Assembly (NCBI RefSeq): GCF_004010195.1
Contig: NC_057752.1
Location: forward strand, 4,649,201-4,706,136
Reading direction: 5' to 3'
DNA from: Chiloscyllium plagiosum
Lineage: Eukaryota
DNA: 56,936 nt
Part shown: positions 9,378 through 56,734 of the stretch, piece by piece
Layout: each line of letters starts with the position of its first letter
Position numbering within the stretch: position 1 is the first letter of the stretch
Notes under the pieces: generated by a model
What the model was told of the DNA's origin: nothing
Databases searched by the model: none
Seen by the model: only the letters and a program-made list of their open reading frames with translations
Made by a program: the position numbers and the translations under genes

Positions 9378-11277
9378 ATAGAGTCATAGAGCTGCACAGC
9401 ATGGAGACAGACCCTTCGGTCCAACTCGTCCATGCTGACCAGATATCCTAAACTAATCTAGGGTCCCATTTGCCAGCACCTGGCCCATATCCCTCTAAAC
9501 CCTTCCTATTCATATACTCATCCAGATGCCTTTTAAATGTTGCAATTGTACCAGCCTCCACCACTTCCTGTGGCAGCTCATTCCATACACGTACCACCCT
9601 CTGCGTGAAAAACGTTACCCCTTAGGTCTCTTTTATATCTTTCCCCTCTCACCGTAAACCTATGCCCTCTAGTTCTGGACTCCCCCACCCCAGGGAAAGA
9701 CTTTGTCTATTTATCCTATCCATGCCCCTCATGATTTTGTAAACCTCTATAAGGTCACCCCTCAGCTTCCGACGCNNNNNNNNNNNNNNNNNNNNNNNNN
9801 NNNNNNNNNNNNNNNNNNNNNNNNNNNNNNNNNNNNNNNNNNNNNNNNNNNNNNNNNNNNNNNNNNNNNNNNNNNNNNNNNNNNNNNNNNNNNNNNNNNN
9901 NNNNNNNNNNNNNNNNNNNNNNNNNNNNNNNNNNNNNNNNNNNNNNNNNNNNNNNNNNNNNNNNNNNNNNNNNNNNNNNNNNNNNNNNNNNNNNNNNNNN
10001 NNNNNNNNNNNNNNNNNNNNNNNNNNNNNNNNNNNNNNNNNNNNNNNNNNNNNNNNNNNNNNNNNCTTACTAACTATACCTCCTATGTTCACATCCAAAT
10101 CATTTATATAAATAACGAAAAGTAGTGGACCCAGCACCAATCCTTGTGGCACTCCACTGGTCACAGGCCTCCAGTCTGAAAAACAACCCTCCACCACCAC
10201 CCTCTGTCTTCTACCTTTGAGCCAGTTCTTTATCCAAATGGCTAGTTCTCCCTGTATTCCATGAAACCTAACCTTACTCACCAGTCTCCCATGGGGAACC
10301 TTGTCAAGTGCCTTACTGAAGTCCATACACATCACGTTCACCGCTCTGCCTTCATCAATCCTCTTTGTTACTTCTTCAAAAAACTCAATCAAGTTTGTGA
10401 GACACGATTTCCCACACACAAAGCCATGCTGACTATTCCTAATCAGTCCTTGCCTTTCCAAATATATGTTAATCCTGTCCCTCAGGATTCCCTTCAACTT
10501 GCCCACCACTGACGTCAGGCTCACCGGTCTATAGTTCCCTGGCTTTTCCATACCACCTTTCTTAAATAGTCGTACTATGTTAACCAACCTCCAGTCTTCC
10601 TGCACCTCACCTGTGACTATCGATGAGACAAATTTCTCAGCAAGAGGCCCAGCAATCACTTCTCTAGCTTCCACCAGTGTTCTAGGGTACACCTGATCAG
10701 GTCCTGGGAATATGGACATTTTTCAAGATATCACCATCTATTTCTCTGCATTCTATATCTTCCATGTCCTTCTCTACAGTAAATACTTTTGCAAAATACT
10801 CGTTTAGTATCTCCTCCATCTCCTGCGGTTCCACAAAAAGGCCGCCTTGCTGATATTTGAGGGGCCCTATTCTCTCCCTTGTTACCCTTTTGTCCTTAAT
10901 GTATTTGTGAAAACCCTTTGGATTCTCCTTAACTCTATTTGCCAAAGCTATCTCATGTCCCCGTTTTGCCCTCCTGATTTCCCTCTTAAGTATACTCCTA
11001 CTGCCTTTATACTCTTCTAAGGATTCACTCGATCTATCCTGTCTATACCTGACATATGCTTCCTTCTTTTCCTTAACCAAACCCTCAATTTCTCTCGTCA
11101 TCCAGCATTCCCTACACCTACCAGCCTTTCCTTAAACCCTGTCTCTGGACTCTCGTTATCTCATTCCTGAGGGCTTCCCATTTTCCAGCTGTCGCTTTAC
11201 CTGCGAAGATCTGCCCCCAATCAGCTTTTGAAAGTTCTTGCCTAATACCATCTAAATTAGCCTTCTTCTAATTTAGA
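9378..11277 (-). mobile_element. HER1-like CR1 LINE, 5'-truncated ~1.9 kb of ORF2 with frameshifts (spans a gap)
   Basis: [66 protein letters not shown]; (CTCTATGA)n tail at 9378-9391. Confidence 0.95.
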
Positions 11278-13800: not shown

Positions 13801-14152
13801 AGAATCGAGAATGTGGTGGTGGAAAAGCACACAGTCAAGCAGCATCCGAGGAACAGGAGAATTGCCGTTTCAGGCAAAAGCCCTTCATCAGGACTGAGGC
13901 AGGGAGCCGGGTAAGGTGAGGGGAGGGGAAATGAGGAAACTGGTGAAGTCCATATTGATACCCTGGGGTTGGAGGGTCCCGAGGCGAAGATGAGGCGTTC
14001 TTCCTCCAGGCGTCAGGTGGTTAGGTAGTGACAATGGAGGAGGCCCAGGACCTGCATGTCCTTGGCGGAGACACTCTGCCTGACCTGCTGTGCTTTTCCA
14101 GCATCACACTCTCGCCTCCAACCTCCAGCATCCGCAGTCCTCACTTTCGCCT
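13801..14152. mobile_element. Fold-back PLE derivative with an internal GIY-YIG C-terminal fragment
   Basis: Left gtggtggtggaaaagcaca..aagcag is inverted as ctgcctgacctgctgtgcttttccagcatcacac on the right. The right end carries the tail ctccagcatccgcagtcctcactttc. Imperfect TSD tttaaaaa.aat. Confidence 0.8.
13864..13891 (-). ncRNA. Minimal hammerhead ribozyme motif, probably inactive (cleavage triplet GGC)
   Basis: Minus strand CTGATGA-A-GGGC-TTTT-GCCT-GAAA-CG-GC. Confidence 0.6.
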
Positions 14153-23699: not shown

Positions 23700-24190
23700 A
23701 TGAGTGTATTTTCTCTTATTTAAGAGTCATGTGATCGGTTAAACGTGAAATACTGCAGATGCTGGAAATTCGAAATGAAAACAGGACGGGCTGGAGGAAC
23801 TCAGCAGGTCTGGCAGCATACGTGGAGAGCGAATGTTTTGAGTCCATTATGACTCTTGTTCAGAACTTAATGCTCAGGTTCCGTGATGCATTCCAGGCTG
23901 ATAACACAGTGTCGTTACTGAAGGAGTACAGCATTGTGAGGGGGCATCCTTTTAAAGAAGCACGCCCCGCCCTCTTGCTTTTGTCTTTTGGTATAGATCT
24001 TCTGCCACTCTTCATCTTCACTCTTCTGGCAATCGTTTCATCCCATGTCCAACCCCCAATCCCACACGGAGCAGCTAGCTGCCTGTTTGTTATCCTTCAT
24101 GGGATCTTACTGTACACAATTGGGTGGCTGCATTTACCAACAGAATGCCAAACGCTGCCCTTGAAAAGTAATCTGCACCACATCAGAGAG
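23700..24190 (+). mobile_element. Deu-domain SINE interrupted by a PLE pLTR fragment (23741-23867)
   Basis: SINE: caggctga..cagtg..tactgaaggagtacagcattgt..gggatcttactgtacacaattggg. Insert: tactgcagatgctggaaat..actcagcaggtctggcagcat..gagtcc..gactcttgttcagaact, with a decayed HHR on the minus strand. Confidence 0.6.
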
Positions 24191-24892
24191 TATAGGATGA
24201 TTCCCTCCCAGCAGTTTATGTTCTGGGGTTTGAGACTATGCCATATTCTGTGATACAGTCATGCCCAGTCCAGAGAACAGACTTTAAACCTCAACCCTTT
24301 TCCCAGCCCTTGTTGCTGTGCTATCTCCCTGTACACATACACAAAAATGTCATCATTGACTGCATTGCAATCTCTTTTGCTTTCCATTTCTGAATGCCAG
24401 TCACCTGGCGAGGGAACCTGGGCATGGCGTGCCGTTTTTTTCCCCCATCCGTTTGCTTGTTTACACAGAGCTGTCCCATATGTTGCTACAGCAAATAAAC
24501 CAATCAATCTGCCAAATGGTTTCTGCTACATTTAAAGTGGGTAGTGCCTTTATAGGAATAATATCTTGTGACGGTTAGGAGCGGAGGAAATTGAGTGACC
24601 CGTTGAATTGGAGCCCTCTTTCACTTCAGGAACATTCATTTGAATGAGGCTAAGATTTGAGAGCCTGACTATTCCAGTGCACTCCTGGTCACCTAAACCT
24701 GAGCTTATCTAAAACCCTGCTTCCCATGTCTTAACTCACAGCAAGTCCCATTCTCCTATCATCCCTGCGCTCTCACTGATCTATATCAACTCCCAGGAGA
24801 AAGTGAGGTCTGCAGATGCTGGAGATCAGAGCTGAAAATGTGTTGCTGGAAAAGCGCAGCAGGTCAAGCAGCATCCAGGGAACAGGAGAATC

Positions 24893-24920
24893 GACGTTTC
24901 GGGCATAAGCCCTTCTTCAG
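24893..24920 (-). ncRNA. Minimal type-I hammerhead ribozyme, core intact (mirror copy)
   Basis: Exact reverse complement of 24955-24982. Confidence 0.8.
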
Positions 24921-24954
24921 GAATGAGGAAAGTTTCTACAAACTTTCCTCATTC

Positions 24955-24982
24955 CTGAAGAAGGGCTTATGCCCGAAACGTC
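24955..24982 (+). ncRNA. Minimal type-I hammerhead ribozyme, core intact
   Basis: CTGAAGA-A-GGGC-TTAT-GCCC-GAAA-CG-TC: CUGANGA, stem II, GAAA, palindromic ACGU mini stem III, GUC cleavage triplet. Confidence 0.8.
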
Positions 24983-25194
24983 GATTCTCCTGTTCCCTGG
25001 ATGCTGCCTGACCTGCTGCGCTTTTCCAGCAACACATTTTCAGCTCTATATCAACTCCCAGTCAAGCAACAGGTTCATTTTCAAATTCTCATCCTTTGTT
25101 TACAAATCCCTCCTTGGCCACACCCTCTCCCTCTCTCCCCCGGCCCCAGTACCCTCCAAGTTATCAGCACTCCTTTAATTCTGACCTCTTAGAG

Positions 25195-26140
25195 AGACAC
25201 AGAAGAGGCCCTTTGGCCGATCAAGTTTGTGCCAACCTATCCCAAACTGGCCCATAGTCTTGAATCTTATAACGTTTCACATGCTCATCCAAGTCATGTT
25301 TAAGGGTTGCGAGGTTTCCCACCTCAACTACCCTCCCAGGCAGTGCATTCCACAATTCCACCACCCTCTGGATGCAAAGTGTTTTCCTCAAATCCACTCT
25401 AAATTTCATGCCCTTTCCCTAAAACGATGGCCCCCTCACTATTGATCCTTCCACTAAGGGAAATCAGGTCCCCTCTTAACCTTGTTTGCTCTAAAGAAAA
25501 CAACCCAAGCTTATCCAGCCTCTCTTCATATCTGAAATGCTCCATATCAGGTAACATCCTGGTGAAGCTCCTCTCGCCCGTGCTCCAGTTCAATCGCATC
25601 CTTCTTATTGTGTAGTGACCAGAAGTGCACACAGTACTTCAGATGAGGCCTAACCAAAACTTTGCAAAAGTGAGGACTGCCAATGCTGGAGATCAGAGTC
25701 TAGATTAGAGTGGTGTTGGAAAAGAACAGCAGGTCAAGCAGCATCTGAGGAGAAGGAAAAATCGATGTTTCGTGTAAAAGCCCTTCATTCCTGATGCTGC
25801 TTGACCTGCTGTGCTTTTCCAGCACCACTCTAACCAAAACTTTGGATAACTGTAAAGTAACATCCCTGCTTTTATAATCTATGCCATGACTGATAATAGC
25901 AATTCTCCCCTATGTCCTCTTAATTACTCTGTTAACCTGTCCTGCCATCTTCGGGGATCTGTGGGCAAGGACCCCAAGATCCCTCTGTTCATTGGAGCTT
26001 CCTAATGTCCTACCATTCACTGGGCACTGCCTTGTCTTGTTACTTCTTCCAAAGTGCACCACCTTGTGCTTTTATGAACTGAATTCTACCTGCCACTGAT
26101 CTGCCAATCTGACCAACCCAATTATATCCTGCTATAACCT
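25195..26140 (-). mobile_element. CR1 LINE 3' fragment with a nested PLE palindrome
   Basis: Minus ORFs: RSFTRMLPDMEHFRYEERLDKLGLFSLEQTRLRGDLI; QRVVELWNALPGRVVE. Confidence 0.85.
25665..25829. mobile_element. Fold-back PLE mini-element (HHR core disrupted) with a 15-bp TSD
   Basis: CTAACCAAAACTTTG occurs at 25650-25664 and 25830-25844. Arms ttagagtggtgttggaaaagaacagcaggtcaagcagcatc / gatgctgcttgacctgctgtgcttttccagcaccactctaa. Confidence 0.9.
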
Positions 26141-32185: not shown

Positions 32186-32757
32186 AAAGAGTCTCTACAC
32201 TGTCCTCATCAAAGACTGGGGGAACGCAGTCAGGCTTGGGGTTAGATACAGAGTGAAGCTCCCTCAACATTGTCCTCATCAATCACTCCCAGGACAGGGA
32301 CAGGATGGGGTTAGATACAGAGTAAAACACCACTACATTGTTCCACCAAACATTCCCAGGATAGACACAGCACTGGGTTAGATACAGAGTAAAGCTCTCT
32401 CTACACTGTCCCCATCAAACATTCCCAGGACAGGGACAGCACAGGGCTACATACAGAGTAAAGCTCCCTCTATGCTGTCCCTACCAAACACTCCCAGGAC
32501 AGGGACAGCACAGGGCTATAAACAGAGTAAAGCTCCCTCTGCGCTGTCCCTATCAAACACTCCCAGGATAGGGACAGGACAGAGACAGCACAGGGATTAG
32601 ATACAGAGTAAAGCTCCCTCTATGCTGTCCCTATCAAACACTCCCAGGACAGGGACAGCACAGGGCTTTATACAGAGTAAAGCTCTCTCTACACTGTCCC
32701 TATCAAACACTCCCAGGACAGGGACAGCACAGGGGTTAGATACCGAGTAAAGCTCTG
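32186..32757. repeat. Tandem array of a ~69-bp unit, about 8 copies
   Basis: Unit TACAGAGTAAAGCTCCCTCTACACTGTCCCCATCAAACACTCCCAGGACAGGGACAGCACAGGGTTAGA; one unit carries a short internal duplication. Confidence 0.95.
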
Positions 32758-35049: not shown

Positions 35050-35600
35050 TGGTGTTCCAGCTCAGTGAGTAAGCAGTCTTATCTCTTGAGTCATAATGTT
35101 TTAGGTCTAAGTCATGAAAACTCAGCTGACACTCCCAGTGTGTATCATCGAGGGAGTGTTGCACTGTTGGAGATGCTGTTTTTTCAGTTGAGACATTAAA
35201 CTGAGGCCCATCTGCCCCCTCAGGTGGATGTAAATATTCTCACGGCACTGTTTTGAAAATGAGCATGGGAATTCTGAAGAAGAGTTATGCCAGACTTGAA
35301 ATGTTCACTCTGTTTCTCTCTCCACAGATGCTGCCAGACCTGCTGAGTTTCTCCATCGTTCTGTGTTTGTTTCAGATTACCAGCATCCGCAGAATTCTGC
35401 CTTGATTCGAGTTCTCTCGATGAGCTGGTCAATATTTATCCCTCAGTTAATATCAGGAAAACAATTGATCTGGTCATTATCACAGTGGTATTTGTGGAAG
35501 CTTGCTGTGTGCCTGTTGGCTATTGTGTTTCTGACACTACAGCACTAATACACTTTCAAATGTATTTAATTAATTGTAAAGTGCTTTGGGATGCCTAGTG
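35050..35600 (+). mobile_element. Deu-domain SINE interrupted by a PLE pLTR fragment (35271-35405); other copies 36770-37100, 42600-42990, 44310-44425, 50460-50800(-)
   Basis: gctgacactcccagtg..gagggagtgttgcactgttggagatgctg..gagacattaaactgaggccc..caggtggatgtaaa..caatatttatccctca. Confidence 0.75.
35274..35305 (+). ncRNA. Hammerhead motif, partly decayed (second PLE family)
   Basis: CTGAAGA-A-GAGTT-ATGCCA-GACTT-GAAA-TG-TT. Sibling remnants at 39061-39095(+) and ~23832-23863(-). Confidence 0.55.
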
Positions 35601-39768: not shown

Positions 39769-41274
39769 GATGGCAGAGTGGGAACTGCAGAGGCTGGAGA
39801 TTAGAGTGGTAGTGGAAAAGCACAGCATCTGAGGAGCAGGAAAATCGACGTTTCGGGCAAAAGCCCTTCATCAGGAATGAGGCAGGGAGCCTCAGGAGTG
39901 GAGAGATAAATGGGAGGGGAGTGGGGCTGGGGGGAAGGTAGCNNNNNNNNNNNNNNNNNNNNNNNNNNNNNNNNNNNNNNNNNNNNNNNNNNNNNNNNNN
40001 NNNNNNNNNNNNNNNNNNNNNNNNNNNNNNNNNNNNNNNNNNNNNNNNNNNNNNNNNNNNNNNNNNNNNNNNNNNNNNNNNNNNNNNNNNNNNNNNNNNN
40101 NNNNNNNNNNNNNNNNNNNNNNNNNNNNNNNNNNNNNNNNNNNNNNNNNNNNNNNNNNNNNNNNNNNNNNNNNNNNNNNNNNNNNNNNNNNNNNNNNNNN
40201 NNNNNNNNNNNNNNNNNNNNNNNNNNNNNNNNNNNNNNNNNNNNNNNNNNNNNNNNNNNNNNNNNNNNNNNNNNNNNNNNNNNNNNNNNNNNNNNNNNNN
40301 NNNNNNNNNNNNNNNNNNNNNNNNNNNNNNNNNNNNNNNNNNNNNNNNNNNNNNNNNNNNNNNNNNNNNNNNNNNNNNNNNNNNNNNNNNNNNNNNNNNN
40401 NNNNNNNNNNNNNNNNNNNNNNNNNNNNNNNNNNNNNNNNNNNNNNNNNNNNNNNNNNNNNNNNNNNNNNNNNNNNNNNNNNNNNNNNNNNNNNNNNNNN
40501 NNNNNNNNNNNNNNNNNNNNNNNNNNNNNNNNNNNNNAGCCTCTCCCTATAGCTCAAACCCTCAAACCCTGGCAACATCCTTGTAAATCTTTTCTGAACC
40601 CTTTCAAATTTCACAACATCTTTCCGATAGGAAGGAGACCAGAATTGCACGCAATATTCCAACAGTGGCCTAACCAATGTCCTGTACAGCCACAACATGA
40701 CCTCCCAACTCCTGTACTCAATACTCTGACCAATAAAGGAAAGCATACCAAACACCTTCTTCACTATCCTATCCACCTGCGACTCCACTTTCAAGGAGCT
40801 ATGAACCTGCACTCTAAGGTCTCTTTGTTCAGCAACACTCCCTAGGACCTTACCATTAAGTGTATAGGTCCCGCTAAGATTTGCTTTTCCAAAATGCAGC
40901 ACCTCGCATTTATCTGAATTAAACTCCATCTGCCACTTCTCAGCCCACTGAGGCGTGGACTTGACCAGGTAGATCACGGAGGGAACGGTCTTTGCAGAAA
41001 GCGGATAGGGGTGGGGAGGACAATATATTCATGGTGGTGGGGTCCATTTGGAGGTGGCAGAAATATCAGCAAATGATGCGATTTATGCGGAGGTTGGTGG
41101 GGTGGAAGGTGAGGACGGGGGGGGGGGGGGGGGGGGTTCTGTCCTTGTTGCGGTTGAAGGGGTGGGGTTCGAGGACTGAGGTGCTGAAAGTGGATGAGAT
41201 GCGCTGGAGGGATCCTCAACCATGTAGGAGAGGAAATTATGGTCTTTAAAGAAGGAGGCCATCTGGTGTATTCA
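39769..41274 (-). mobile_element. Neptune-type PLE insertion (pLTR 39775-39942, coding fragment 40950-41270) containing a gap and a CR1 fragment (40538-40948, minus)
   Basis: The pLTR belongs to the same family as 24797-25044. Candidate TSD CAATGTTCTGAC (39757-39768) / CAATGGTCTGAC (41275-41286). Confidence 0.6.
39847..39874 (-). ncRNA. Minimal type-I hammerhead ribozyme, core intact
   Basis: Minus strand CTGATGA-A-GGGC-TTTT-GCCC-GAAA-CG-TC. Confidence 0.8.
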
Positions 41275-44809: not shown

Positions 44810-46130
44810 AAGGGTGGGAGAGGAACGACTTGGATAAGTAAAGTGATTGTACTATCGCCAAGTTTGTAGATGTCACAAAAATAGGGAGGAAGGCAAGTGG
44901 TAAGAGGACACAGTCATCTACAGAGGGATGTAGACAGGTTAAGTGAGTGAGCATAAAACTTGATACATGGGCAAATGTGAGCTTATGCACTTTGGCAAGA
45001 AGAATAAAGGAGCTGAGTATTATTTAAATGGAAAAAGACTGCAGCAAAGCTACAAAGCAAGGGTTTTGGGAGTCCCCATTCATGAATCACAGAAAATTAG
45101 CATCCAAGTTCAGTGTTCCTTATAGAATCATCACAGAATCCCTACAGTATGGAAGCAGGCCATTTGACCCACTGAGTCCACACCAACCCCCCGAAGAACA
45201 ACCCACCCAGACCCATGCCCTATCCTATCCCTGTAACCCTGCATTTCCCATGGCTCATCCACCTAGCCTACATATCCCCGGACACTGTAGATACTATGGG
45301 GCAACTTAGCACGGCCAATTCACTTAACCACTTAATCCACCCAGTGTTGGCCGATATTTCAAAGGGAATGGAGTGTAAAGGTAGGGCAGTTTCGCTAAAA
45401 CTGTACAAGGCACTAATCAGACCACAGCTGGAATACTGTGAACAGGTTTGGACTCCTTGTTGAATTAAAGATATACTGTCATTAGAAGCAGTCCAGAGAA
45501 GGTGCACTCAGCTGATCCTGGATATGGAGGGACTGTCTTATGAGGTGAGATTGAACAGCTTAGGCCTGTACTCATTGGAATTGAGAATAATGAAAGGCAA
45601 ACATATTGTAACAAACAGGATTCTGAGGCATTCTGGATCAGTGGTGCTGGAAGAGCACAGCTATTCAGGCAGCATCTGACGAGCAGCAAAATCAACGTTT
45701 CGGGCAAAAGCCCTTCATCCGGAAATTGACAGGGTCGATGTGGAAGGTTGTTTTCCTTAAAGGAGAGCTTAGGATCAAAGGGCATAATTCTGATTAAAGA
45801 ATTGTCCATTTAAGACAGCGATGAGGAGGATAAGGTTGACAAAAATAATTATTCTCGTTGGCTGATAGTACCAGTGCTATGAGACAGAGATTTAAGATTT
45901 TAAGCAAGAGTTGTAGGGGAATTTAAGGAAGAATTTATTTATGCAGTGAATGGAATGAACTGGAGACAATTGTATAAGGGTGCTGGAAACAGATTCAATC
46001 AATCATTTCAAAGTAAATTTGTTGGGCATTTGAGGTAAATAAACGTGCGGACTTTGGAGATGGAACAGAGGGGTGGGACTGACTGTATTGTCAAATACAG
46101 GCTGAATGGCCTCCTTTGGTACCGTTGTGA
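44810..46130 (+). mobile_element. Decayed CR1 fragments interrupted by an HE1 fragment and a PLE pLTR fragment (45632-45724)
   Basis: IAKFVDVTKIGRK; LKLYKALIRPQLEYCEQVWTP. The pLTR HHR on the minus strand at 45694-45721 has its core mutated to CGGATGA. Confidence 0.75.
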
Positions 46131-46175: not shown

Positions 46176-47581
46176 GTGTGGCGCTGGAAAAGCACAGGCT
46201 GGGGTTGAGGTAGCTGGAAAGGCGATAGTTAGATGCAGGTGCGTGGGAAGGAAGATTGTCAGTTCAAGAGGGCGGTGCCGAATTAGAGGATTGGATCTGG
46301 GATGGGATGGGTGGGAAGGAAGATGAGGAAACTGGTGAAGTTAAAGTAAATGCTGTGCAGTCGGAGGGTCCCAAGGCGGAAGATGAGGCGTTCTTCCTCC
46401 AGGTGTGAGGTGGCTTGGATTTAGCGGTGGAGTAGGCCCAGGACCTGCAGGCCCTTGGCAGAGTGGGAGGGGGAGTTGAAGTGGTCAGCCACAGGGCGGT
46501 GGGGTTATTGGGTCCGTGTGTCCCAGAGACGTTCCCCGAAATGTTCCGCGAGTTGGCGTCCTGTCTCCCCAATGTAGAGGAGACCACATCGAGAGCGGAA
46601 GAGGTCCAGGACCTGCAGGCCCTTGGCAGAGTGGGAGGGGGAGTTGAAGTGGACCTGACGAGGGAGTTGTGGAGGGAATTGACTCTGAGGAATGCTGATA
46701 GGAGTGGGGAAGGAAATATATCTCTGGTGGTCAGGGTCTGATGGTAGGTGGGGGAAATGGTCATACAGTGCATTATCCTTTGCCATTTCCACCACCTACA
46801 ATCAGATCCCCACCACCAGAGATATGTTTCCCTCCCCACCCCATCGGCAGTCCACAGAGACCATTCCCTCCGCGACTCCCTCATCAGATCCACACCCCCA
46901 ACCAACCCACCCTCCATTCCCGGAACCTTCCCTTGCTGCCGTGGGAGATGTGAAACCTGCACCCACACCTCCCCCCCTCACCTCTGTCCAAGGCCCCAAA
47001 GGATCCTTCCACATTTGGCAGTGATTTTCCTGCACATCCAAACACTTCATCTACTGTGTCCGTTGCTCTCGATGTGGTCTCCTCTACATTGGGGAGACAG
47101 GACGCCAACTCGCGGAACGTTTCAGGGAATGTCTCTGGGACACACGGACCCAACAACCCCACCGCCCTGTGGCCGACCACTTCAACTCCCCCTCCCACTC
47201 TGCCAAGGGCCTGCAGGTCCTGGACCTCTTCCACCGCTAAATCCAAGCCACCCCACACCTGGAGGAAGGACGCCTCATCTTCCACCTTGGGACTCTCCAA
47301 CCACAAGAAATCAACGTTGATTTCACCAGTTTCCTCATTTCCCATTCCCCCTCATCACAGATTCAACTCTCCGACTCGTCACTGCCCTCTTGAACTGTCC
47401 TACCTGTCCATCTTCCTTCCCACCTATCTGCTCCACCCTCCTTTCCGACCTGTCACCATCACAAGGGCTTCTGCCCGAAATGTCGATTCTCCTGCTCCTC
47501 GGATGCTGCCTGACCTGATGTGCTTTTCCAGCACCACTCTCTCGACGCTGATCTCCAGCATCTGCAGTCCTCACTTTCTCC
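46176..47581. mobile_element. 1.4-kb fold-back Neptune-type PLE with a GIY-YIG remnant in both arms and a 14-bp TSD
   Basis: Right arm: PGTFPCCRGRCETC..FSCTSKHFIYCVRCSRCGLLYIGETGRQLAERFRE..PVADHFNSPSHS. The left arm is its inverse. TAATATTGTGAATA (46162-46175) / TAATATTATGAATA (47582-47595). Confidence 0.9.
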
Positions 47582-47822
47582 TAATATTATGAATACACAA
47601 CTAATTAACCAAAGCAAGCTTTTACATCACACATTTATACGAGACTAGAGAATCAGAAAGCTATGCTGTAATTAATATATTATCTAATTACTTGGAGTGC
47701 TATTACCTTAATGTGAATGTGATAACATCATTGTCAATTTCTTCAGCTATAAAATGCACATTAGCACAGCTGTCTGTATGGTACTGCATAATAAGCTGAA
47801 ACAACAACAGTCCTTCTCACAA

Positions 47823-49861: not shown

Positions 49862-50106
49862 GGTGCCAGGGTATACCGACAGGTAAACGTGCCAGAGTCC
49901 GGTGCCAGGGTATACCGACAGGTAAACGTGTCAGAGTCCGGTGCCTGGGTGTACCGACAGGTAAACGTGTCAGAGTCCGGTGCCTGGGTGTACCGACAGG
50001 TAAACGTGCCAGAGTCCGGTGCCAGGGTGTACCGACAGGTAAACGTGTCAGAGTCCGGTGCCAGGGTATACCGACAGGTAAACGTGTCAGAGTCCGGTGC
50101 CAGGGT
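49862..50106. repeat. 39-bp minisatellite, ~6.3 copies
   Basis: Unit GGTGCC(A/T)GGGT(A/G)TACCGACAGGTAAACGTG(C/T)CAGAGTCC with only three variable positions. Confidence 0.97.
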
Positions 50107-51899: not shown

Positions 51900-54800
51900 G
51901 ACACGCAAAAACACACCGGCAGAGGCCCACAGACACAGGCAGAGGCCCACAGACACAGGCAGAGGCCCACAGACACAGACAGACAGACACACACAGACAC
52001 AGGCAGAGGCACACACACACAGGCAGAGACACACACACACAGGCAGAGACACACGGCGTGTGCGCACACACAGGCAGAGGCACAGACACAGGAAGAGGCA
52101 CACAGACACAGACGCGCACACAGGCAGAGGCACACACACACAGGCAGAGGTGCACAGACACAGGCAGAGGCACACACACAGGCAGAGGCGCACACACACA
52201 CAGGCGGAGGCACACAGGCACGTGCGCACACACACAGGCAGAGGCATACACACAGGTTGAGGCACACACAGGCAGAGGCACACAGACACAGGCGTGTACA
52301 CAGGCACACACAGGCAGAGGCAACACACAGGCAGAGGTGCACAGATACAGGCAGAGGCACACACACAGGCAGAGGCGCACACACACACAGGCGGAGGCAC
52401 ACAGGCACGTGCGCACACACACAGGCAGAGGCATACACACAGGTTGAGGCACACACAGGCAGAGGCACACAGACACAGGCGTGTACACAGGCACACACAG
52501 GCAGAGGCAACACACAGGCAGAGGTGCACAGATACAGGCAGAGGCACACACACAGGCAGAGGCGCACACACACAGGCGGAGGCACACAGGCACGTGCGCA
52601 CACACACAGGCAGAGGCATACACACAGGTTGAGGCACACACAGGCAGAGGCACACAGACACAAGCAGAGACACACAGGCGCGTGCGCACACACAGGCAGA
52701 GACACACAGGCAGAGGTGCACACACATAGGCAGAGGCACACACACACAGGCGCGTGCGCATACACACAGAGGCAGAGGCGCACAGGCAGAGGCCCACACA
52801 CACAGGCAGAGAGACACACACAGGTAGAGGCACACACGCACAGGCACACAGGCACAGTCGCGTGTGCACACACAGGCAGAGGCCCACACACACAGGCAGA
52901 GGCCCACAGACCCAGGCACGTGCGCACACACATACACACAGGCAGAGGCACACAGGCGCGTGCACACACACACACACACAGGCAGAGGTGCACACGCAGA
53001 GGCACACACACAGAGGCAGAGGCACACACACACACAGGCAGAGGCACACAGACACAGGCGCGTGCGCGCACACACACAGGCAGAGGTACACACACAGGTG
53101 CGTGCGCACACACACAAGCAGGCAGAGGCACACAGACACAGAGAGACACAGGCGCGTGCGCGCACACACACAGGCAGAGGTGCACACACAGGCAGAGGCA
53201 CACACACACAGGTGCGTGCGCACACACACATGCAGGCAGAGGCACACAGGCAGAGGCACACAGACACAGGCGCGTGCGCACACACAGGCAGAGGCGCACA
53301 GGCAGAGACACACAGGCAGAGGCCCACGCACACAGGCAGAGGCCCACAGACACAGGTGGGTGCGCACACACACACAGGCAGAGGCGCGCACACACACACA
53401 CACAGGCAGAGGTGCACACACACAGGCGCGCACACACACAGGTCCACACACAGGCAGAGGCACACACACAGAGGCACGTGCACACACACAGGCAGAGGCA
53501 TACACACACAGGCAATGGCACAAATACACAGGCAGAGGCACACACACACACAGGCAGAGGCGCACACACAGGCAGAGGCACACAAACACAGGCACACACA
53601 CAGGCAGAGGCACACAGACACAGGCACGTGCGCACACACACACAGGCAAAGGCACACACACACAGACACAGGCGTGCGTGCGCACACAGATACAGGCACG
53701 TGCGCACACACAGGCAGAGGCACACACACAGGCAGAGGCACACAGGCACGTGCGCACACACACAGGCAGAGGCACACAGACACAGGCAGAGGCATACACA
53801 CACAGGCGCGCACACAGGTAGAGGCACACACACAGGCGCGTGTGCGCACACAGGCAGAGGCACACACACAGGCGCACACACAGACAGAGGCACACAGACA
53901 CAGGCGCGTGTGCACACACACAGGCAGAGGCACACAGACAGGCGCGCACACACAGGCAGAGGCACACAGGCGCACACACANNNNNNNNNNNNNNNNNNNN
54001 NNNNNNNNNNNNNNNNNNNNNNNNNNNNNNNNNNNNNNNNNNNNNNNNNNNNNNNNNNNNNNNNNNNNNNNNNNNNNNNNNNNNNNNNNNNNNNNNNNNN
54101 NNNNNNNNNNNNNNNNNNNNNNNNNNNNNNNNNNNNNNNNNNNNNNNNNNNNNNNNNNNNNNNNNNNNNNNNNNNNNNNNNNNNNNNNNNNNNNNNNNNN
54201 NNNNNNNNNNNNNNNNNNNNNNNNNNNNNNNNNNNNNNNNCACAGGCAGAGGCACACACACACAGGCAGAGGCGCGCACACAGGCAGAGGCACACACACA
54301 GGCAGAGGCACACACACACACACAGGCAGAGGCGCAAACAGGCAGAGGCACACAGACACAGGCACACACAGGCAGAGGCATACATACACAGGTGCATGCG
54401 CACACACACACAGACAGAGGCACACAGACACAGGTGGGTGCGCACACACACACACAGGCAGAGGTGCGCACACACACACACAGGCAGAGGTGCACACACA
54501 CAGGCGCGCACACACACAGGTCCACACACAGGCAGAGGCACACACACAGAGGCACGTGCGCACACACAGGCAGAGGCATACACACACAGGCGCACACACA
54601 CAGGCAGAGGCGAGCACACACAGGCAGAGGAACACAGACGCGTGTGCGCACACACACACAGGCAGGGACACACACACAGGCAATGGCACAAATACACAGG
54701 CAGAGGCGCACACACACACAGGCAGAGGCACACAAACACAGGCACACACAGAGGCAGAGGCACACAGACACAGGCGCATGCGCACACACACACACACAGG

Positions 54801-55880
54801 CAAAGGCACACACACAAAGGCAGAGGCACACAGACACAGGCGCGTGCGCGCACACAGACACAGGCGTGTGCGCACACACAGGCAGAGGCACAGACACAGG
54901 AAGAGGCACACAGACACAGACGCGCACACAGGCAGAGGCACACACACACAGGCAGAGGTGCACAGACACAGGCAGAGGCACACACACAGGCAGAGGCACA
55001 CAGGCACGTGCGCACACACACACAGGCAGAGGCACACAGACACAGGCAGAGGCACACAGACACAGGCGCGTGCGCACACATAGGCAGAGGCACACAGGCA
55101 GAGGCACACAGACACAGGCAGAGGCCCACAGACACAGGCACGTGCGCGCACACATACACACAGGCAGAGGCACACAGGCACGTATACACACACACACACA
55201 CACGCAGAGGCAGAGGCACACAATCATTGGCACACACACACAGGTGCACACAGACAGAGGCACACACACAGGCAATGGCCCACAGACACAGGCATGTGCG
55301 CACACACATACACACAGGCAGGGGTGTGCATACACAGGCAGAGGCACACACACACACAGGCAGAGGCACACAATCAGAGGCGCACACACAGGCGCACACA
55401 GACAGAGGCACACACACAGGCAGAGGCACACAGACACAGGCACGTGCGCACACACACACAGACAGAGGCACACACACACAGGCAGAGGTGCACACACACA
55501 GGCAGAAGCACATACACACGCGCACACACAGGCCCACACACATACAGGCAGAGCCACAGGCAGAGGCACACACACACAGGCAGAGGTGCACAGACACAGG
55601 CAGAGGCACACACACAGGCAGAGGCACACAGCGGCAGAGGCACAAGCACACACACAGAGGCACACATACAGACACACACAGGCAGACACATACACAGAGA
55701 GAAACACACACAGAGACACACAGAGAAAGAGGCACACCCACATGCAGGCAGACAGGCACACACGCACTTTCACACCCCCTACACACACAGACACACACAC
55801 ACCTTTCACATACACTACACACACACCCTGAAACATAGACACATACACACACACATACCCCCTTCACACACAGACAGACA
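51900..55880. repeat. ~4-kb compound satellite (CA)n-GGCAGAGG with higher-order repeats; contains a gap
   Basis: Recurrent CACACAGGCAGAGG. The marker AGGTTGAGG occurs at 52254, 52441 and 52626, giving 187/185-bp periods. Confidence 0.97.
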
Positions 55881-56734
55881 CTAATGTAGCAGTCCTGTGT
55901 CGATGATTTATCACTGATTCCTGGTCTCATTTCCCCAGGTCGCAGAGCTGAAAAATCCAGTCGGTTTCTGGCTGGCCTTTGAGGTTCGTGCTGGAGCAGG
56001 TTGGGCCTAACTTCCTTCCAGACGGTTTTCCTTACCTCCTGAGGGATTCGGCAGGATAGCAGCTGGAGGGGCTGTACCAGGGGCCCCCTGTTCACTCCAC
56101 GGTGGGGAATAGATGGCACAGCTCGTGGGTTCTGGGTATGGAACTGAACTCGTAATCCAGAGATTTACGTTCACCTCAAGGTAATTGGGGAATTTCAAAT
56201 CAGCTAGTTATAGGCATCAATAAGAAAAATGCTAGTATAGCTCATCTGGTTCAGTAATGTGAAGGAAATCTGTCCTTGCCTGGTCTGGTCTATATGTGAG
56301 TCCTGCCCATGGGTTGACTCTGAAATGGCCCAGAAAGCTCCTCAGTTCTAATCAAGAAGACAATTCACCATAAACTTCTGAAGGGCATTGGGGGTGGGTA
56401 AGAAATGGGTGATATTGTCATCCTGTGAATGAATTGAAGAAAATCCTGTTTCCTTTTCATATCCATCAGCTGGCATTTATGCCTGTGCCCATGACACTGT
56501 GGACAAATTACTTAGCCAGGTTGGCATTGAGATTAAATATTCTGCAATGTAGCTCAGTGACACACCCAAAGTGTGGCCACTTTGCTCACACGCCTGAACC
56601 CAATGAGCACAATTGGTGACCCATGTGTGCCAACCTGTTGGCAGCCTCAGAATGCAGTCACTGCTCTGGTGGTGGAAGTACCAGGCCCATGATGTACCAG
56701 GTACAAACACTGTGGTTATGAATGAAAGAACGTG

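Follow-up and report, generated by a model that had tools for sequence, protein, structure and literature searches.

MITEs and foldback DNA transposons have symmetric terminal repeats, a fixed short target-site duplication (TSD) and uniform copies with a fixed centre. In L1 twin priming the second target strand primes a second cDNA, which gives a 5' inversion joined by microhomology, and the inversions of L1 cover non-overlapping parts of the RNA. For Penelope-like retrotransposons (PLEs), the way in which inverted structures form is named as an open question in the available text of two accounts (PMC8557442, PMC3846280). PLE transcripts are reported, in excerpts of the papers concerned, to start within the pseudo-LTR (pLTR) (PMC6765202, PMC2377424). 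In vitro, according to the accessible part of PMC11167929, the protein of an anole PLE cuts each of the two target strands and extends it, and its reverse transcriptase (RT) begins at two positions within the RNA, one at either end of the tail; inverted insertions are not derived from two-strand priming in that part of the paper.

The locus compared here with these systems lies in a 56,936-nucleotide stretch of Chiloscyllium plagiosum DNA (the window). The original prediction described a palindrome with 108-bp arms, one mismatch and a 4-nt centre, flanked by a 17-bp TSD and carrying a hammerhead core on each strand. All of these features are present (Table 1): sequence comparison places the 108-nt arms at 24828-24935 and 24940-25047, and the single mismatch pairs 24867 with 25008. 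The variant base at the mismatch occurs in 5 of 178 sampled arms, a frequency inside the range of ordinary transitions, so that it may be either a source allele or a later mutation. An empty orthologous site, which had been suggested as a check, exists in related organism B, where a 1,098-nt contig runs straight from 24302-24779 into 25045-25334 with one TSD copy. The exact TSD and this empty site together indicate that the insertion and its duplication are real. The nick positions are ambiguous because 3 nt of the right TSD copy and 2 nt of the left one also match the element. The four bases of the centre comprise two that carry on the parent sequence and two that have no template there.

Table 1. 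Coordinates of the inverted pLTR pair and its parts
Feature	Position	Strand	Basis
TSD, left copy, 17 bp	24780..24796	+	Exact repeat; present once at the organism B empty site
Long arm: 139 nt of PLE pseudo-LTR, 5'-truncated, full 3' end	24797..24935	-	97.8% identity over 139 nt to the L181 pLTR
PLE tail, 31-34 nt, long arm only	24797..24830	-	Short (tail-less) arm stops 30-40 nt before the 3' end in 90 of 101 head-to-head insertions
Minimal type-I hammerhead motif; core 24920-24893, predicted cut after 24893	24893..24924	-	Sequence
Putative RNA 5' end, in the minus-strand hammerhead	24924		Arm-end pile-up
Join between arms	24936..24939	.	24938-24939 continue the parent, 24936-24937 untemplated; genome-unique with up to one mismatch allowed
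Short arm: same pseudo-LTR inverted, without tail; last 3 nt overlap the TSD	24938..25047	+	Sequence comparison
Minimal type-I hammerhead motif; core 24955-24982, predicted cut after 24982	24951..24986	+	Features match PMC4209133
Stem I of the plus-strand hammerhead	24951-24954 with 24983-24986	+	3 of 4 pairs
TSD, right copy, 17 bp	25045..25061	+	Exact repeat; organism B empty site

Could the palindrome nevertheless be an artefact of assembly? No contig examined spans the whole filled site, and the lone left-junction contig, from another study, has 21 nt on the element side, against a bridge threshold of 31 nt. The exact TSD, the empty site in organism B, the asymmetric arms and the untemplated centre, however, all fit a real insertion, and 94-95% of sampled words occur in two DNA runs, one of which may be the assembly's own source. 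We regard an artefact as hardly credible.

Judged by sequence, both arms are the pLTR of an endonuclease-bearing PLE. The arm repeat presumably resembles repeats of cartilaginous fishes, and the last 50 nt of the long arm have 9,061 exact matches in the 3.56-Gb genome. The PLE origin that had been proposed is borne out by two copies, L181 and L182, in which an ORF with RT and GIY-YIG domains is followed by a pLTR 96-98% identical to the arm (97.8% in L181, 96.4% in L182). The Pfam RVT_1 model scores 31 bits in L181 and 32.5 bits in L182, above its cut-off of 29.6; GIY-YIG scores 21.4 and 21.7 bits, just below its cut-off of 22.6 (E 3e-4). Both copies are without the ORF 5' end, and no intact full-length master copy was found among the copies examined. 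Two frames of L040, neither of them the coding frame, gave no Pfam match. The pLTR stands on both sides of the PLE ORF, preceding its start and recurring after the stop codon, and some copies continue past the tail into a common ORF start about 40 nt downstream. Since the element extends beyond the tail in this way, reverse transcription must prime inside the RNA. Longer copies have, upstream of the pLTR, a reading frame whose last domain is GIY-YIG and whose linker contains three cysteines; in protein P0001 this three-cysteine motif lies directly before that domain. A Zn-finger-like Cys motif in the RT-EN linker is a criterion of the Neptune/Nematis clade in the available text of PMC8557442, and the linker motif points to the Neptune or Nematis clade as the likely home of this element. 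A sibling subfamily with a sibling pLTR has an 893-codon open frame (L177:1027-3705, reverse strand), the 5' part of which is a tandem duplication of an ORF segment.

The two hammerheads were originally read as minimal type I, and the features listed for this form in the accessible part of PMC4209133 are indeed found: the conserved core, an extra base before 10.1, the G10.1-C11.1 pair and a palindromic stem III. Stem I, described as weak, has three of its four pairs here and all four in the sibling copy L177. The Rfam match that had been looked for did not appear, as no hammerhead family matched in the window at E<=1 or on one arm at E<=10; the only Rfam matches were to miRNA-hairpin models and were sub-threshold. 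Folding predictions for one arm by itself do not yield a hammerhead (z about 0; -5.3 versus -8.2 kcal/mol), whereas the RNA of the whole palindrome is predicted to form a hairpin of -226.9 kcal/mol (z = -28), which none of 200 shuffles equalled. This agrees with the sequestering hairpin of the original prediction: because the two motifs are mutually antisense, both ribozymes of a read-through RNA are predicted to be trapped in the hairpin and inactive. One polyA single-cell RNA run, of which about 2% was sampled, held 2,210 reads of the PLE family, not assignable to this locus. None of the runs listed as containing the sampled words is recorded as RNA. The single-cell run contained no reads from the sequence immediately flanking the insertion and no start or end peaks, and at this sampling it is uninformative on expression, editing and the RNA 5' end.

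The stability predicted for this hairpin raises the question of whether the host has kept the insertion as a functional hairpin RNA or cruciform. We consider this highly improbable, as the insertion is absent from related organism B, is one among thousands of like structures with an arm identity ordinary for the family, and has no recognised host gene nearby among the long open frames (a survey of frames rather than a gene annotation).

To place the locus within its family, insertions were taken from the first-listed matches to two 3'-end patterns on contigs C1-C3, chosen blind to the junction; 194 were parsed, 16 were removed for N and 178 were retained. The sample consists of exact-match copies and is hence young. 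It comprises 101 head-to-head insertions, 73 that are simply truncated and 4 that are direct. A TSD was detected in 110 of the 178, of 11-17 bp in 100 of these 110 and with a mode of 14-15 bp. Among the 101 head-to-head insertions there are 82 different junction classes; 57 of the joins show microhomology, 12 are blunt and 32 have inserts. Both arms extend past the start of the hammerhead core in 16 of the 178 insertions. Genome-wide, the first 11 nt of the core occur back to back within 30 nt in 8,390 matches; this figure takes in sibling subfamilies, occasionally counts a place twice and does not cover the core beyond those 11 nt. The two arms of a pair differ at 2.1% of sites, and in 35 of the 65 pairs with at least 60 common columns they differ at no more than one site. 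Near-perfect arms are thus ordinary in this PLE family.

The window itself holds other, older PLE fragments in opposite orientations. A more diverged head-to-head pLTR copy lies at 25650-25852 (arms 25694-25756 and 25782-25844, TSD of about 15 bp), with a different junction and one arm that has no hammerhead. At 46251-47582 an older PLE insertion combines sequence from the endonuclease region, present in both orientations, with a pLTR (47463-47582), and the hairpin match at 46719-46824 originates from it. Further fragments of several ages are at 13807-14152, 39823-39938, 40952-41265, 45633-45724, 23743-23880 and 35274-35355, with a complete hammerhead core at 39847-39874 (-) and a core-like motif with a different stem II at 35274-35305 (+). 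Other repeats in the window are a 4-kb purine-skewed minisatellite (51911-55881, 18-20-nt unit) that gives rise to long spurious open frames, tandem arrays at 32238-32755 (units of 69-81 nt) and 49862-50106 (39-nt unit), and a 219-codon frame at 10066-10722 (-), which we take to be a fragment of a CR1/L2-type LINE ORF2.

Is the palindrome a unit that copies itself, or is it made anew at each insertion? The headline of the original prediction was a minimal non-coding mobile unit, retrozyme- or MITE-like, with a by-product of PLE insertion as its second option. That the palindrome, or the class of copies with a nearby centre, is a non-autonomous unit transcribed and re-inserted whole would account for two observations. 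First, 18 of the 40 best-matching loci have a common overlap centre near the present one. Second, at 13 loci both arms reach the same point with a spacer of 1-14 nt, and two spacers are each found twice among them. These 13 loci nonetheless have 11 distinct spacers, that of the present locus being unique, and its centre occurs once genome-wide even with one mismatch allowed. The common centre falls on a 7-nt quasi-palindrome of the parent and so is able to recur, and recurrent centres coincide with microhomologies. Its middle base is G in 7 copies and C in 11. An exact search for it returned 18 places, of which one (L235) is a chance match outside the element. The copies that carry it represent at least five source haplotypes, and in two cases a single haplotype has both middle bases (L009/L020 and L022/L048). 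The common centre must therefore have arisen repeatedly, and the sharing of a centre by copies from different source haplotypes shows that the palindrome is not replicating as a unit. There is also no tandem array at the site, and an RNA folded into a 108-bp hairpin would probably be a poor template.

Replication as a unit thus appears very unlikely, and we are confident that the palindrome is a by-product of PLE insertion, made per insertion. Of the outcomes contrasted in the original prediction, a replicating family and fold-back points that differ between copies, it is in substance the second that was found, as centres vary per insertion. The mobile-unit headline accordingly falls, given the unique centre, the 82 junction classes and the recurrence of centres in different haplotypes, and its second option stands. 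A MITE or foldback DNA transposon was rejected in view of the asymmetric ends, the TSDs of mostly 11-17 bp and the number of junction classes.

How, then, does the inverted pair form? We think it probable that a single insertion of the high-copy PLE leaves two 5'-truncated pLTR copies head to head, both target strands priming and the cDNA ends being joined. The PLE endonuclease would make a staggered cut in the target, and RT would have two start sites within the RNA, separated by about 34 nt and each serving one target strand, giving one arm with the tail and one without it. Both cDNAs would normally extend to the very 5' end of the RNA and run off there, some 128 nt in, at a point that coincides with the hammerhead's first base, and their ends would then be joined via microhomology or with a few inserted bases. 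The present copy, whose long and short arms reach 139 nt and 141 nt inward, would derive from a longer, read-through RNA, and its two hammerheads would be passengers of the pLTR.

The alternative is that the same PLE by-product arises by self-priming, one cDNA or antisense template folding back and copying itself, with later central deletions making the arms unequal. Self-priming is the explanation proposed for head-to-head PLE copies in the available text of PMC3846280. The inner ends of the arms speak to this choice. The arm with the greater inward reach is the tail-less one in 63 of the 101 head-to-head insertions (by at least 8 nt in 47) and the tail arm in 34 (by at least 8 nt in 22). Where the tail-less arm is the longer one inward, each arm has sequence that the other lacks, which implies two RNA-templated syntheses unless there were later deletions; fold-back of a tail-bearing cDNA cannot yield arms that each have private sequence. 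Central deletions after insertion could also give asymmetric arms and the mixed G/C centres. A similar spread of inner ends is, however, seen in non-palindromic truncated copies, so that shortening needs no palindrome, and direct copies made by target priming end at the same position as the outer end of the tail-less arm.

Alleles of the source elements were compared in the 101 pairs, and the arms were concordant in 20 cases and discordant in 5, where 4.5 discordant cases are expected from mutation alone and 1.4 concordant ones under random pairing. Since the arms share alleles, they derive either from a single RNA that was copied twice or from a single source locus. This concordance is also what fold-back predicts, and the short, locally templated inserts at some joins (L076, L100) resemble brief fold-backs. 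Two different RNA molecules per insertion were considered as well: a few arms differed at linked sites (L101, L010), and the idea is unsupported in the 101 pairs. Taken together, the junction statistics favour two end-joined cDNAs over simple self-priming, and we judge self-priming rather unlikely. Some junction inserts of 4-9 nt (L076, L100, L138, L208) are copied from nearby stem II sequence and presumably resemble the templated inserts of polymerase-theta end joining.

Returning to the two-cDNA model, 93 of 174 insertions have a longest inward reach of 123-131 nt and 14 have one of at least 139 nt, the minority range into which the present copy falls; of 22 downstream tandem copies, 16 have their start at 127-132. 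Position 128 is the first base of stem I, and the A at this position belongs to what we take to be an initiator-like motif. The pile-up of arm ends near 128, seen in DNA only, is likely to reflect cDNAs running off the 5' end of the RNA; alternatively, RT may be strongly halted by the ribozyme. In the partial tandems L319, L321, L324, L328, L332, L335, L336 and L339-L345, a copy from near 128 follows a variable length of ORF 5' sequence; they have the appearance of run-off at the 5' end of the RNA and a subsequent template jump. Three head-to-head copies (L208, L233, L319) have the tail on both arms, one of which continues deeper into the ORF, so that RT is evidently able to start downstream of its two usual sites as well.

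Do the hammerheads leave a trace in these junctions? Most arms run through the hammerhead cut site, so most templates were uncut. Seven arms end exactly at the cut site and none at the next three positions. In a hand tally of the first 100 of 649 matches selected for ends at positions 93-100, these positions have 9, 16, 11, 30, 12, 6, 9 and 7 ends, respectively, the cut site being position 96. Microhomology joins make up 13 of the 30 cut-site ends, and the remaining 17 compare with about 10 per neighbouring position. This weak excess is suggestive only.

A broader reading is that head-to-head junctions record PLE integration, namely cDNAs primed by both target strands from two internal starts near the 5' end of the element's own transcript, run-off at the first base of the hammerhead and end-joining, the minority of arms that end at the cut site being a footprint of cleavage in vivo. 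We offer this tentatively, as a possibility somewhat short of even; if true, it would replace the self-priming explanation for PLE inverted repeats. Neither a two-primer model for PLE inversions nor this PLE family was found in the literature searched, which was of partial coverage and excluded repeat databases. The locus itself, as one of thousands, matters little. The value lies in the family-wide junction record: a young, very abundant family with statistics that separate models of formation. A caution for sequence scans is that PLE insertion is expected to leave double-hammerhead palindromes flanked by a TSD. If read through, thousands of hairpins of about 100 bp could give this genome a sizeable supply of double-stranded RNA.

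As in endonuclease-bearing PLEs (PMC3846280 and PMC8557442, in their available parts), an inverted copy, itself 5'-truncated, adjoins the 5' end, a TSD is present, the pLTR contains a hammerhead and a 30-40-bp tail occurs on one end only; the asymmetry of the arms, with a tail on just one, is the published form of a PLE insertion. Unlike the head-to-head copies published in those parts, both copies here are so short that only the pLTR remains, and the TSDs, with a mode of 14-15 bp, exceed the 8-10 bp of the rotifer PLE examples. The Poseidon PLE of Anolis, PAc, as described in excerpts of PMC11167929, similarly has internal RT starts that bound the tail, extension of both strands in vitro and uncut RNA as its main template, as here. 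It differs in that its ORF start is inside the hammerhead, whereas that of the present element is about 40 nt downstream of the tail, and the linker here has a Neptune/Nematis-type Cys motif. The ribozymes correspond to the minimal hammerheads of PMC4209133, as far as its available text goes, in the extra base between 9 and 10.1, G10.1-C11.1, a palindromic 15.2-16.2 and the lack of a loop 3; stem I of this subfamily contains a U-U mismatch, against four of four pairs in the L177 sibling. A further difference is that the present motifs are antisense to each other and so unable to form the dimer in cis. Non-LTR retrozymes (bioRxiv 10.64898/2026.07.22.740005, in part) are likewise non-coding, derived from a PLE pLTR and equipped with a type-I hammerhead. 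They are direct tandem units, whereas the present locus is an inverted pair with a per-insertion centre; no tandem array of hammerhead units was found at the site, and a retrozyme was rejected for these reasons. The head-to-head form dominates the family studied here (101 of 178 sampled). Finally, unlike in L1 twin priming, the two putative cDNAs cover the same stretch of about 100 nt, and the product is a palindrome.
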